From the IMG/VR virus record IMGVR_UViG_3300037418_002116: a stretch of DNA of 64,000 nucleotides, one strand, 5' to 3'. This DNA is from a virus. Lineage: Duplodnaviria > Caudoviricetes. Numbering within the stretch: the stretch's first letter is position 1; every line of letters begins with the position of its first letter. The notes beneath the pieces are model-generated. The model searched no databases. It was not told the DNA's origin and worked only from the letters and a program-made list of their open reading frames with translations. This document shows, piece by piece, positions 6,912 through 50,043 of this stretch. The translations under genes and the position numbers were made by a program.

Positions 6912-7464
6912 CTAATCTCGCCTCATAATTTGGTTGCCGATAGCTAGGGCAAGACAGATAAAAACGGCAACGCCAACAAATCCCAAATATATCCATTGTG
7001 CAATTTGAGAAACAGCGATTATGTATATGAAACCGGCAGATAGAAATATGACAGCCGAGCCGATTAGAAAGGCTTTAAGGTCTTTGTTCATTGCAAACCA
7101 GTTTCTATACCTTGTTTAAAAGCATGGATGATTTCACCCATCTTCTGTGAGGCTCCAATTGGATTGAACAAAAAGGACAACACAATCAAGAACGCCGCAA
7201 GTGCTAAAATGTCTCTCATTTTTCTTTCTTTCCCCATGCAAACCATTCATGGTCATACTTATCAACGCATTGGTTTGGCCATTCGGCATCTTGTTTGTAG
7301 ATCAATTGTGGAATGAATTGTGGATATTCGTGATTAAGTTCTAGACATGCAATGCGCATGTGATCATTCCATTGATCATCTTTAAGCTTAGTAATTTCAT
7401 ATTTGTTGATGGTGCAGAAAACAAAAAGCAGGACGCACCAAAACCCAAGAACAAAGTGTTTCAC
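6912..7464 (-). CDS. Three small membrane-protein CDSs (about 6912-7091, 7088-7219, 7216-7464)
   Basis: Hand translation gives MNKDLKAFLIGSAVIFLSAG... and MRDILALAAFLIVLSFLF...; the third is in the ORF track. All have hydrophobic segments and ATGA-type overlaps. Confidence 0.6.
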
Positions 7465-8114
7465 ATCGTTTCCAATATTACTTTCACTCGGGAAGCATCG
7501 ATCTTTCCCTGATATTTCTTCATAATTTGACCGACAAACCAGTTTTTAAGGTTTGTCTGCTTTTGTGCCTTTTCCCATTGTTCTGGGTTGGCTTCGATCA
7601 CTGCTTTGAGCGCATCGAAAATCTCATAATCATGAACTTCTGCAAACACATGGCGAGTCCGAACAATGTCGTAATCTTCGGACAATTCAGGTAGCATGGC
7701 CTTTTTCTGATTGAATGTGAGTGTATCATTGACCAGTCGAATAAGCTTGCGCTTATCAGCGATCACATCCAAAGCCCTTGTGCCGGTTTCCTTGGCTATC
7801 TGTGCGATAGGTCCAATGAAGAGTTTGATTGCGTCTTCCTTGTTGTCGAAGGCGCTGAAAAGGTAACAGAAATTAATCCAGTCGGTTTCAAAGAGATTGC
7901 CGAGCGCTTCCGATGTTTTCCAGTCGATTGAGAGCCCGTATTGACTTTTCAGATAATGGATTGGTGGTTCAGCGAACCAAAATTTTCGGATATAGGCGGC
8001 ATCAGTTAGCTTCGACCAAGACGTAACGAAACCAGTCGTCACATTCTTGGTCTTGCCAGTAATCCAATCACCCGTGATTTCGATATCGAAATGCACGATT
8101 TCATCATCACTCAT
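7461..8114 (-). CDS. Protein with C-terminal GatB/YqeY-like tRNA-binding domain
   Basis: C-terminus VIEANPEQWEK...NWFVGQIMKKYQGKIDASRVKVIL matches the GatB tail pattern (V..NP.....K....FFVGQVMK...GKA....V). Confidence 0.7.
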   Translation of the reverse strand: MSDDEIVHFDIEITGDWITGKTKNVTTGFVTSWSKLTDAAYIRKFWFAEPPIHYLKSQYGLSIDWKTSEALGNLFETDWINFCYLFSAFDNKEDAIKLFIGPIAQIAKETGTRALDVIADKRKLIRLVNDTLTFNQKKAMLPELSEDYDIVRTRHVFAEVHDYEIFDALKAVIEANPEQWEKAQKQTNLKNWFVGQIMKKYQGKIDASRVKVILETM

Positions 8115-21445: not shown

Positions 21446-21530
21446 TGGAGGCGTCAGTGGGATTTGAACCCACACTCCGTAGAGACTTCCGCTTTGCAGG
21501 CGGATACGTTAGCCATTCCGTCACAACGCC
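21446..21530 (-). tRNA. trnC: tRNA-Cys(GCA) with long variable arm
   Basis: Cloverleaf: GGCGTTG/TGACGCC acceptor, U73, encoded CCA, anticodon loop CTGCAAA, T arm GTGGG-TTCAAAT-CCCAC, 14-nt variable region. Confidence 0.9.
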
Positions 21531-21536
21531 ACTTGT

Positions 21537-21845
21537 CTATTTATCTTCCACAAATTTCAATTCGTCAAGAGTTTTGAACGAAATATAGCTGGCGTTATGG
21601 TCATTCACATAACCAGCGCCATCAACTCTGTAGATTTGAATGTGAATCGTAACTCTATCGTTATCATCCACATCGATATCATCCGTGATAATGGCACGGC
21701 GTTTGTGGTCACGATACCAGATTTCGATATGCTTACCAGCAAGGTAGGTTACTAACCATTCCTTGTAAGTTTTCCGAGCATACCAGAACGAATTTCGAAG
21801 TTCAAAGAATCTTTCGTTTACAGTCGGTCCAAAGTGTGTCGCCAT
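21537..21845 (-). CDS. Hypothetical protein
   Basis: Overlaps the glycosyltransferase end. Confidence 0.6.
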   Translation of the reverse strand: MATHFGPTVNERFFELRNSFWYARKTYKEWLVTYLAGKHIEIWYRDHKRRAIITDDIDVDDNDRVTIHIQIYRVDGAGYVNDHNASYISFKTLDELKFVEDK

Positions 21846-28364: not shown

Positions 28365-28438
28365 TGGTTCCCGCTCATGGACTCGAACCACAATTCGCTC
28401 CTTCAAAGGGAGTTGTCCTACCATTAGACGAAGCGGGA
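28365..28438 (-). tRNA. trnQ: tRNA-Gln(TTG)
   Basis: TCCCGCT/AGCGGGA acceptor (U1:A72), loop CTTTGAA, TTCGAGT, encoded CCA. Confidence 0.92.
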
Positions 28439-28460
28439 ATAGTATTGAAACGTACTCTAT

Positions 28461-28703
28461 TTAGTAGTCGATGTCAAACAATCTTTTCAAAGCTTTGGGT
28501 AAAAGTCGCTTTTTCTCTGTATATGGCTTAGTTTTGAAGCGTTTCATCTGGTCATAACGTTTGGCCAAGGCGATATCTTCATCCGAACCCTTTTTCAGAG
28601 CCATTTGTTTGGCGCATGAACGATAGAATTCATCCGTTTCGTCCCACGAATCCATGAGATAACGAGAACGAAAAATTTTAATATATTCACTTTCTGTGGC
28701 CAT
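28461..28703 (-). CDS. Hypothetical protein
   Basis: Operon overlap. Confidence 0.6.
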   Translation of the reverse strand: MATESEYIKIFRSRYLMDSWDETDEFYRSCAKQMALKKGSDEDIALAKRYDQMKRFKTKPYTEKKRLLPKALKRLFDIDY

Positions 28704-39388: not shown

Positions 39389-39962
39389 TCAGCCATCGGT
39401 TAGCTTCTTTCGTGGTTTTCTAGACTTTTTACCTTCCACAACGCCAACCTTGCCCAAAAGAGATTGATCCTTTTCAAGGAATGCAGTCATAGCAATGTTG
39501 CCATCCGCCTGCCGATGAAACATCATCTGGACTAACTTATTATCCAACTCTGCCGGAATATGTTCTGACTCAATTTTGAACAAAGAAATTTCCGAAAAAT
39601 TATCAAACTGTACAAGACGCCAGATAAATTTTATGTCTGGAATTTCGTCATGAATCTGCTTGGCAGCTTCGACAGTCGCTCGGACATACACACTTGTCAT
39701 ATCAGCAACGCTCCACTGTTCCGCCAATGTACTCAATCAGAAGCATAAGGAATTGGTCAGGATTCATATCTATCGATTGCCCACATTCGGACCATGCGTC
39801 TATTGAATAGTCGTCAAATTCTTCCATATGAGCATTTCTCGGATAGATCACGAAACAATCGTTATCCAAAACCACATGGAAGTCTGGATTTTCTTCAATA
39901 TATTCAAGCAGTTCGTTCGGATCGTTGTTTATTTGTCGATAATCGAGATAATTAAGCGTCAT
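39389..39962 (-). CDS. Two hypothetical CDSs (39389-39736, 39702-39962)
   Basis: Operon overlaps. Confidence 0.6.
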
Positions 39963-40849
39963 TTTTTGTACTTTCTCAAAACAGCTTCCATATCGGCAAG
40001 CACGTTGTCAATGGACACATCCACTTTCACGGCATCGGTCAAAGAGCCGTAGTGCGATTCAAGGCACTGCAACAGAAGTTCTTTGATCTTGTCTTCATCC
40101 GGCCCGTGTGGAAGAGAGGAATTGGCATAGAGCGTTTCAAGACTCTTCTCTTTCTCTTCGAACCACGTCTCGATTTGCTCTAGCGTCCAGTCGCCACGGC
40201 GAATCGACTTATAGATTTCCCGATCACGCTCTAGGTTTAGATCGCCAGTCGCCAAAATTTGTTCGCATTGCAGGCACAGGCGCACGACGTGATAGGCGAA
40301 CTTGGTATCCATCCCAAATTTCTCGATATCAGCGGCCCGTCGATCATTGCTCGAATTCTGCTTGTTCTTGATCTTGGCCATCTGTGCAAAGGCATAGCCA
40401 CGCAACTTGAACATGGCACCCTTATGCAGGAACAGCCTGCGATTCGAACGCACAAGCTCACCAACCGCCGTCGTGTGGATAACACAACGTCTAGGTGTGA
40501 AGATGGAATCGATCATATTCGGGTTGTTTTCCATCAGAAGTTGAAAGTACTTCACAATGGAATAAACCGAAATATCGTATTCCTTGTTCGAACCGTCTTC
40601 CGGTCGAATATGGTGTTGCTGGTATTGTTCAAATCGCTGGATTTGCTTGCCGAACCCAAAAATTTCCCCAGAAAGGTGCGGGAACACGATGTTTTTGGGC
40701 GGAATTGCAAAACCATAAAGGTCCACATCGGATGCCCCCGAGGAACAACCGTATGCTTCTGAACCCATGATTGTGAGGAAATGAATGTTGTCCGCAAGCC
40801 AGTGCGGCGGCGAGATTACTCCCGCCTTCTGTAATTTTTGAATTATCAA
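39959..40849 (-). CDS. Pol-beta superfamily nucleotidyltransferase (RlaP/PF10127-like)
   Basis: GSEAYGCSSGASDVDLYG, NNPNMID, GYAFAQ, KFAYHVVRL, IRRG motifs. Confidence 0.85.
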   Translation of the reverse strand: MIIQKLQKAGVISPPHWLADNIHFLTIMGSEAYGCSSGASDVDLYGFAIPPKNIVFPHLSGEIFGFGKQIQRFEQYQQHHIRPEDGSNKEYDISVYSIVKYFQLLMENNPNMIDSIFTPRRCVIHTTAVGELVRSNRRLFLHKGAMFKLRGYAFAQMAKIKNKQNSSNDRRAADIEKFGMDTKFAYHVVRLCLQCEQILATGDLNLERDREIYKSIRRGDWTLEQIETWFEEKEKSLETLYANSSLPHGPDEDKIKELLLQCLESHYGSLTDAVKVDVSIDNVLADMEAVLRKYKK

Positions 40850-48782: not shown

Positions 48783-48905
48783 CGACTCCATTTCTAGGAG
48801 TCGCCCGGTTTGGGACTATTCAGTCCCTCATACGGAAGTCGTCTAGACGATTGGTTTGTACGCTAGATTAACCCGTTGAAGGCCGATTTCGCATACAAAC
48901 CAATC
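48783..48905 (-). promoter_or_regulatory. Multi-hairpin structured leader; last hairpin sequesters the SD
   Basis: 12-bp stem 48849-60/48894-905, GGGACT/AGTCCC, CGACTCC/GGAGTCG. Confidence 0.6.
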
Positions 48906-50043
48906 AAATCATGTGTTTAGCTTTGAAGGTTTCCCATTTCAGCTTTTGTGTAGAGTTTTTCTCGATACGCTTCAAGATTGCCGTTCTAGCAGGCTGTTCA
49001 GCGAATTGAGCGAATAGAATCGGAACATCGTCCGGCTCAAATTCCTTCGCAAATTCTAGTGCAAACTTCTTACGATCACCCGAAGATTTTTGGTACACAT
49101 CGTTATAGATTGCATGATATTTCGATTCTTGGCGATTTACAGACGCCCAGAATTCTTGTTCAAATTCAATTACCCTATTAAGGTCTTCTTCTATCAGTAA
49201 TGATTTCAAGTCATCGATCTTTTCTTGAAGGATGGCTTGAACAATGTTGTATTCAGCGGAATTAACAAGTTCTTTCGAATTATGCATTAGGCAATATTCG
49301 GAAGTTTTGAATTTCAGCATGTGCCCGTTGTCGAAACGAAGCACATAACCTTCAATACCTTGTTGGTCCTGAACACTCGCAATAAATTGGGCGAGTTCCT
49401 TTTGACTATTATATGTTGCTACAGTGGGAATATCCCAATGACCGGCTAACTCTTTCATCTCTTCCGGATGAAAATATTCACCAGTATCATTATATCTTAT
49501 AGCAGTTAATATCAAATTGTCAATAGGATAATCTATAACTATCCTATTTTTACGGGAAGTCCACTCAAATATTGGTGTAATTTCTTCCTCATCACAGTAT
49601 TCTGCAAACTTGTTGTACTTCTTATTGGCATATGCAAAATACTCTGCATTATTTCCAACATCCGTGATACCCATCTTTGTTCCCCAACGGAAGCCGTTGT
49701 GCAGACGGAGTGGCGTGATCATGGAACCGTCAAGCTTTTCGAACACCGTGTGGGGTTGCGATAGGTCGATAAGGTTCGCTTGCGTCTCTGGACGTTCGTT
49801 GATGTTGAAAAATTTATGGAAACGACGGGACAATAATTTTCCGTCCGGAGCAAAGACAATGCCTCGGCACTCACGACGGAGAGCATCATTCAGAGTCGTG
49901 ACGGGCGGAAACGAATCCGGCATGTGGACCACATAGTTGATAACAATGTAATCCTCTTTGTCACAAACAATGAATTCGTCCCGGCCTTTGATAGCCGGGA
50001 GAACATCATCAATCGTGCTTATTTTTGGAAATTCGTAAAACAT
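48904..50043 (-). CDS. RNA ligase 1 (T4 Rnl1/gp63-like)
   Basis: RECRG, FHKFFN, EKLDGS adenylation motif, FEW, EGYV, LKFK. Confidence 0.92.
   Translation of the reverse strand: MFYEFPKISTIDDVLPAIKGRDEFIVCDKEDYIVINYVVHMPDSFPPVTTLNDALRRECRGIVFAPDGKLLSRRFHKFFNINERPETQANLIDLSQPHTVFEKLDGSMITPLRLHNGFRWGTKMGITDVGNNAEYFAYANKKYNKFAEYCDEEEITPIFEWTSRKNRIVIDYPIDNLILTAIRYNDTGEYFHPEEMKELAGHWDIPTVATYNSQKELAQFIASVQDQQGIEGYVLRFDNGHMLKFKTSEYCLMHNSKELVNSAEYNIVQAILQEKIDDLKSLLIEEDLNRVIEFEQEFWASVNRQESKYHAIYNDVYQKSSGDRKKFALEFAKEFEPDDVPILFAQFAEQPARTAILKRIEKNSTQKLKWETFKAKHMI

Follow-up and report, generated by a model that had tools for sequence, protein, structure and literature searches.

A class I tRNA-Cys gene with a predicted hairpin in its variable region in a T4-like soil phage

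Textbooks keep extra arms for the tRNAs of serine, leucine, tyrosine and selenocysteine. A tRNA-Cys gene with a paired variable region of 14 nt raises the question of whether its product is still a cysteine tRNA in translation, a substrate for another aminoacyl-tRNA synthetase, or an RNA with some other task. The gene considered here lies in a 64,000-nt stretch of viral DNA (IMG/VR record IMGVR_UViG_3300037418_002116), referred to below as the window. The window belongs to a T4-like soil phage and encodes a T4-type large terminase, T4 RNase H, PhoH, Nampt and an NMNAT-Nudix enzyme. ARAGORN called four tRNA genes in it, one of which was an 85-nt tRNA-Cys(gca) on the minus strand, with the following features.

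21446..21530, minus strand: tRNA-Cys(GCA) gene, 85 nt with the encoded CCA counted in (ARAGORN; RF00005, 58.4 bits; pairing and covariation in relatives)
21446..21448, minus strand: genome-encoded CCA 3' end (sequence)
21449, minus strand: discriminator U73 (sequence)
21474..21487, minus strand: variable region, 14 nt, AGU-CUC-UACG-GAG-U (sequence; fold)
Parts of the variable region, minus strand: A44 G45 U46, then stem CUC (21482-21484), loop UACG (21478-21481), stem GAG (21475-21477) and U48 (21474)
21495..21497, minus strand: anticodon GCA, in the loop CUGCAAA (21493-21499)
21506..21521, minus strand: D arm ACGG-AAUGGCUA-ACGU, class I, with a 4-position stem, a G.A mismatch at 13:22, and G18 and G19 present

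Against the Rfam tRNA model RF00005 the gene scored 58.4 bits (gathering score 29) in an end-to-end match covering model positions 1-71, with 11 nt of the variable region treated as an insertion. The acceptor stem GGCGUUG/UGACGCC has 7 bp and is followed by U8 and G9; the D arm combines a 4-position stem with an 8-nt loop that includes G18 and G19; A26 precedes an anticodon arm (UCCGC-CUGCAAA-GCGGA) with a 5-bp stem, and the T arm (GUGGG-UUCAAAU-CCCAC) likewise has a 5-bp stem. The general features of a tRNA are complete: U8, A14, G18 and G19, a UUC T loop, the G53-C61 pair, a 7/5 branch and CCA. The gene has the 7/5 cloverleaf body of a normal class I tRNA, and the arm is class II-like in length alone. 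An earlier note on this DNA, which gave no strand for the gene, had read a GCA anticodon, U73 and a 14-nt variable region with a 3-bp hairpin capped by UACG, all of which is borne out by the sequence, ARAGORN and RF00005. Its description of the arm as 'class II-type' holds for the length, and fails for the body, which is class I, and for the geometry of the arm (see below). The CUC/GAG hairpin is predicted by a single-sequence fold of the tRNA. The energy of the whole fold is ordinary for its composition (z = -1.29), and support for the arm therefore comes from relatives.

Related IMG/VR contigs were retrieved by way of the glycosyltransferase upstream of the tRNA-Cys. In the closest, L001 (87% protein identity), the syntenic tRNA-Cys is 84 nt long and bears exactly the same CUC-UACG-GAG hairpin on a body that differs at about one quarter of its positions, including several compensatory changes in the stems. 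The two contigs next in similarity, L002 and L003 (62%), have a 76-nt tRNA-Cys in the same place with a variable loop of 5 nt, so that a phage tRNA-Cys at this locus does not depend on the arm. The arm is thus retained in one sub-lineage and absent from a sister lineage.

Three cultured roseophages also came up in a BLAST search with the tRNA, each with an annotated tRNA-Cys gene of 86 nt: Phaeobacter phage MD18, DSS3_MAL1 and Ruegeria phage RpAliso. The laboratory host of MD18 is Phaeobacter inhibens, and that of RpAliso is Ruegeria pomeroyi. In MD18 the long-arm gene is the sole annotated tRNA-Cys and lies within a large tRNA cluster; the paper on this phage describes 32 tRNA genes matching the phage codon usage and passes over the arm without comment. 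The GenBank records, too, annotate the long-arm tRNA-Cys genes without comment.

Metagenomic members were added by pattern scans, giving a long-arm tRNA-Cys family that we call type A. Its common traits are a class I body, a D arm of the form UGACRG...AAYGU and a variable region of the form N-R-Y-[stem-tetraloop-stem]-N; position 13:22 is non-Watson-Crick in every aligned type A relative. In the alignment of 12 distinct type A sequences, 91% of cells were paired and 18 of 25 pairs had changes on both sides, values reached by none of 500 shuffles; the stems expected from RF00005 are therefore present, with compensatory changes in relatives. The three pairs of the arm itself were 100% paired in all 12 distinct members, with compensatory changes in two of the three: the first pair is invariant (C-G, 12/12), the second is U-A in nine and G-C in three, and the third is C-G in 11 and G-C in one. 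The arm stems are CUC/GAG, CGC/GCG and CUGC/GCAG, and the tetraloops UACG, UUCG, UUAG, GAAA and GCAA. Such covarying pairs under differing tetraloops indicate that what is selected is a stable hairpin, not a particular sequence. As a separate candidate, CUC/GAG as a sequence-specific motif was ruled out by the CGC/GCG and CUGC/GCAG arms, both of which came from unconstrained scans.

The same alignment bears on the possibility that the molecule is a cysteine tRNA whose hairpin resists a host factor (a nuclease, a toxin or a modifying enzyme) or marks it for a phage factor. Covarying stems and varied loops argue against this, as they favour shape over a sequence motif. However, the hairpin, loop included, is identical in the window, L001 and L083, the bodies of which differ by roughly one quarter of positions, and the first arm pair never varies. 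The identity of the loop across three diverged lineages and the invariant first pair may leave room for a role beyond passive tolerance, and we regard a protective or marking hairpin as possible, albeit unlikely.

The frequency of the arm was estimated by scanning IMG/VR with a pattern that fixed the D arm, anticodon and T loop alone and left the length of the variable region free. Of the 101 IMG/VR stretches with a tRNA-Cys of the same D-arm lineage, 98 had loops of 4-6 nt and three had the long arm. Phage tRNA-Cys genes with a D arm of the window type and a short loop are thus abundant, and the long form is a minority of about 3% of its tRNA-Cys lineage in IMG/VR; the lack of the arm in the other 97% counts against protection or marking as its purpose. 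An exact 34-nt search of IMG/VR found nothing. Looser scans with long spacing, in which many rows were false matches to TGCAA in the D stem, yielded at least about 38 further IMG/VR loci and at least about 30 tRNA-Cys genes in bacterial genomes with variable regions of 10-21 nt, in both cases with several arm designs. The bacterial genes are, for the most part, located in dense tRNA arrays and probably represent mobile elements. The earlier note had named as evidence against its proposals that long-arm tRNA-Cys might prove common in this phage group and be charged normally; as to the first part, recurrence in phages was indeed found. In the literature searched there was no 7/5 class I tRNA-Cys with a hairpin in the variable loop, from a phage or otherwise; the supplement of Mukai 2017, on alphaproteobacterial phage tRNA clusters, lay outside this search and could show one.

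Several other tRNA genes came to light in these scans. A second design of long-arm tRNA-Cys was seen in the bacterial loci L231, L235, L270, L307, L309 and L320, where it lies in tightly packed tRNA arrays on contigs of the Burkholderiales type and others. This design combines a class II-like D arm (UAGCCAAGUGGUCGAAGGCG) with a GGC-GCAA-GCC arm and an acceptor stem starting with C1-G72. Its Tyr- or Leu-like body may, speculatively, reflect origin from a class II tRNA by a change of anticodon. In a large, highly uniform family of 78-nt phage tRNA-Cys genes (46 IMG/VR loci, L092-L209), the variable loop is AAAACC or AAAGYC (6 nt) and the D loop, of the AGAGUGGCCCAA type, has 10 nt. ARAGORN also called an amber-reading tRNA with a CUA anticodon (L087:14150-14222) on a 178-kb viral contig that bears a long-arm tRNA-Cys as well, and a permuted tmRNA (L437:11225-11734) beside an array of 25 tRNAs on a metagenomic contig.

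How the arm is built into the body was judged from its geometry. Position 47 of a tRNA is solvent-exposed and missing from four-base variable loops, and positions 44, 45, 46 and 48 make core contacts. Read from the sequence, the hairpin takes the place of nucleotide 47 in a five-base class I loop (44-45-46-47-48), a placement at which these core contacts would be undisturbed. In keeping with this, position 15 and the last base of the variable region make a Levitt pair, A-U or G-C, in five of the seven members read by eye.

Arms were then compared with those of all ARAGORN tRNAs in the fetched phage loci, which included 90 tRNA-Ser in a first set and 138 in an enlarged set. Variable regions of the 90 first-set phage tRNA-Ser were 15-22 nt long, with a stem of 4-7 bp in 88 of them, and the arm of the window's tRNA-Cys (14 nt, 3 bp) is shorter than every one of these 90; in the enlarged set, one tRNA-Ser in 138 ties with it, having a 3-bp stem and similar spacing. 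Phage Tyr arms in the fetched loci mostly have 3 bp, and Leu arms 3-4 bp. Expressed as unpaired bases, stem and unpaired bases, the enlarged set gave 1/5-7 bp/1 for Ser, 1/3-4 bp/2 for Leu and 1/3 bp/3 for Tyr, whereas type A tRNA-Cys is 3/3-4 bp/1 and the window's gene 3/3/1, unlike every Ser, Leu or Tyr arm sampled. Given the 3/3/1 geometry and the class I body, 'class II-type' describes the length of the arm only, and the gene has neither the size nor the orientation of a class II tRNA-Ser arm (14 nt, 3 bp, 3/3/1).

These measurements weigh on the proposal, made in the earlier note, that the arm turns this tRNA-Cys into a substrate of SerRS, which would insert serine at some Cys codons. SerRS does read the extra arm and not the anticodon (PMC9976931), G1-C72 and G2-C71, both present here, are conserved in bacterial tRNA-Ser (PMC9976931), and U73 has been taken as compatible with serylation in allo-tRNAs and is tolerated in some SerRS substrates (Mukai 2017, PMC5389517). 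However, the size of the arm is the main determinant of Ser identity (PMC9976931), and here it is 14 nt and 3 bp, against 15-22 nt in 90/90 and 4-7 bp in 88/90 of the first-set tRNA-Ser, in a 3/3/1 arrangement against 1/5-7/1. A yeast tRNA-Leu with a short, UUCG-capped arm accepted serine only once the tetraloop had been destroyed and a pair added (PMC9976931), a result that places a 3-bp arm with a UNCG cap among arms of the non-Ser kind. MD18 has no annotated phage tRNA-Cys other than the long-arm gene, so that mischarging there would harm proteins of the phage itself. Mis-serylation is therefore very improbable in our judgement, and this part of the earlier note is not supported by the comparison.

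The marks of cysteine identity are largely in place. The anticodon GCA and U73, the major identity elements for CysRS (PMC9976931), are both present, as are G1-C72, G2-C71, C3-G70 and the 13:22 mismatch (rules from PMC9976931). U73 occurs in 13/13 rows of alignment A5, and 28 of 29 folded long-arm phage tRNA-Cys have U at this position. The E. coli-type G15:G48 Levitt pair is replaced by A15:U48; the G15:G48 element is confined to a few bacterial species (PMC9976931) and so does not define tRNA-Cys in general. LeuRS and TyrRS require A73, and TyrRS also U35 (PMC9976931). The window's tRNA has U73 and C35, which excludes both enzymes. A long variable arm need not prevent cysteinylation, since selC* tRNA-Cys with such an arm was charged with cysteine by engineered CysRS variants and then used in translation (PMC5389517).

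The gene was also compared with known systems. The canonical bacterial or phage tRNA-Cys(GCA) (E. coli cysT; 1U0B as cited in PMC5389517) shares with the window's gene GCA, U73, G1-C72, G2-C71, C3-G70, the 13:22 mismatch, the 7/5 branch, the 5-bp anticodon stem and the CUGCAAA loop. The window's gene departs from it by the inserted 10-nt hairpin, giving 14 nt in place of 4-5, and by A15:U48 in place of the E. coli-type G15:G48; the statement of the earlier note that canonical tRNA-Cys has a short loop was correct. The selC* tRNA-Cys (PMC5389517) shares with it a long variable arm and also Cys marks (U73, and GCA in some members). Those molecules, however, have an 8/4 branch, a D arm like that of tRNA-Sec and a longer anticodon stem, and they occur in anaerobic bacteria beside selB-like genes, whereas the present gene is phage-borne and combines a 7/5 branch and a class I D arm with an anticodon stem of 5 bp. 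An 8/4 or selC*-like fold was considered and rejected for the window's tRNA: the stems read as a 7-bp acceptor, a 5-bp T and a 5-bp anticodon stem, A26/A44 cannot extend the latter, and neither the 8/4 branch nor the lengthened anticodon stem of selC* is present.

Class II tRNAs (Ser, Leu and bacterial Tyr) are alike in having a paired extra arm, and the 14 nt and 3 bp found here are close to the size of phage Tyr and Leu arms; the window's tRNA-Cys differs from them in its class I D arm, U73 in place of A73 or G73, Cys anticodon and 3/3/1 geometry. Nematode nev-tRNAs and bacterial allo-tRNAs (PMC3333845, PMC5389517) also carry an extra arm together with an anticodon for an amino acid other than Ser, Leu or Tyr, but their bodies are of the Leu or Ser type and determine the charging, so that they can miscode. 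The body and discriminator of the window's tRNA are of the Cys type, and no recoding is therefore expected. Nor does it have the allo-tRNA structure of an 8/4 or 9/3 branch and a tRNA-Sec-like D arm with a long stem and a tetraloop: its branch is 7/5, and its D arm has a 4-position stem and an 8-nt loop.

Extra arms were also recorded on other phage tRNAs. L001, L002 and L003 each carry an 89-nt tRNA-Gln(UUG) with a 16-nt variable region forming a CCG-UUAACU-CGG hairpin (L001:1166-1254, L002:543-631, L003:734-822), and the tRNA-Gln(UUG) of the window (28365-28438, minus strand) is a normal 74-nt molecule with a body unlike these three. Extra arms on class I tRNAs would thus have been both gained and lost between these phages. 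In the phage loci L083-L209, 18 of 67 tRNA-Ile calls had variable regions of 21-27 nt (e.g. L086:900-990 and, beyond that set, L432:3075-3166). Long-variable-region tRNA-Ile with a UAU anticodon adjoin type A tRNA-Cys. In L083-L209 some Asn, Gln, Lys, Trp and Thr tRNAs were long-armed too, and the opposite case was met there in 42 of 127 tRNA-Leu calls with a variable loop of only 5 nt.

Part of this pattern bears on a hairpin that protects or marks its tRNA. Phage tRNA arrays repeatedly contain class I anticodons on long-armed tRNAs, and the arm turns over quickly among close relatives, as is typical of conflict-driven traits: tRNA-Cys is long in the window and L001 and short in L002 and L003, and tRNA-Gln(UUG) is short in the window and long in L001-L003. 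The phage is, moreover, heavily invested in tRNA handling and repair, with a stand-alone GatB/YqeY-domain protein (7461-8114, minus strand), an RlaP nucleotidyltransferase (39959-40849, minus strand), a T4 Rnl1-type RNA ligase with a C-terminal domain (48904-50043, minus strand) and a mini-HisRS. The GatB/YqeY domain is tRNA-binding and RlaP is an RNA repair enzyme; with such a content of tRNA-related genes the phage may face tRNA-targeting defences, and the ligase, RlaP and the YqeY-domain protein count in favour of a protective arm. However, the anticodon loop CUGCAAA, the usual target of anticodon nucleases, is the unchanged, ordinary loop of tRNA-Cys, and no partner gene was identified; the escape from host anticodon nucleases suggested in the earlier note is thus not supported. 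The wider proposition, in which the hairpin is a functional tag against or for a host or phage factor and long-armed class I tRNAs of phages (Cys, Gln, Lys, Asn and others) follow a general counter-defence design, is in our view doubtful.

The earlier note had considered that the tRNA might need a phage factor such as an aminoacyl-tRNA synthetase-like protein. The only such gene near tRNA-Cys is a truncated HisRS-like one that adjoins tRNA-His, and no CysRS or SerRS domain was found among the 30 larger ORFs of the window that were scanned; these results do not support the idea. No DNA match to the 1-kb neighbourhood of tRNA-Cys was found among 50,697 sequenced phages, and a scan for sigma-70 promoters and terminators gave nothing relevant. 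Between the glycosyltransferase and tRNA-Cys lies an ORF of 102 aa (21537-21845, minus strand) that has no Pfam match. It lacks a counterpart in L001 (192-nt gap) and L002 (12-nt gap), and is therefore either an insertion or not a gene. The 8-mer TAAATAGA has four copies in the window, two of which precede tRNAs (21536-21543 and 28456-28463, both on the minus strand): one is 5 nt upstream of tRNA-Cys and the other 17 nt upstream of tRNA-Gln(UUG), and each overlaps the stop codon of the preceding ORF. L001 also has it at the same place before tRNA-Cys. The 8-mer could be a late-promoter-like signal, a processing signal or a chance occurrence.

Taken together, the gene probably encodes a working elongator tRNA-Cys that is charged by the host CysRS and bears a structurally selected, identity-neutral and dispensable hairpin. 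The analysis itself shows the gene, its cloverleaf and an arm that is conserved, covaries and differs from Ser, Leu and Tyr arms in both size and geometry. The remaining steps are inferred from sequence: the tRNA would probably be transcribed with the upstream genes and cut out by host tRNA-processing enzymes, charged by the host CysRS via GCA and U73, and used in translation to read UGU and UGC codons. The 10-nt hairpin CUC-UACG-GAG would replace nucleotide 47 and project from the back of the elbow, where selection would hold it as a stable structure with amino-acid identity unaltered. Relatives with the same tRNA body lack the arm, which is thus a tolerated and probably stabilising variant of a lineage and not a requirement.

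Two further fates of the transcript were weighed against a working tRNA-Cys. A non-translational role, as a decoy, a regulator or another tRNA-like RNA, or a gene in decay, sits badly with the intact anticodon loop, the full set of tertiary-contact nucleotides, the CCA and U73; compensatory changes in every stem also indicate purifying selection on the whole cloverleaf. We consider it improbable. Removal of the hairpin after transcription, leaving a mature tRNA with a short loop, had been raised in the earlier note as something to rule out; nothing was found in its favour, and it appears extremely improbable, as the shape and the stable tetraloops fit a structural element that is retained. The introns known from bacterial tRNAs are group I introns that interrupt the anticodon loop, and we know of no bacterial or phage mechanism for excising a 10-nt hairpin from a variable loop.

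Should the arm prove passive, the value of the finding would lie mainly in annotation: such genes are real tRNA-Cys genes and not signs of recoding. A hairpin maintained by selection at position 47 of a class I tRNA-Cys would nonetheless depart from the textbook rule for extra arms and would provide a natural test of the extra structure tolerated by CysRS, EF-Tu and the ribosome. Since three carriers are cultured phages with laboratory hosts, stabilisation of the tRNA and protection from host attack could easily be tested against each other.
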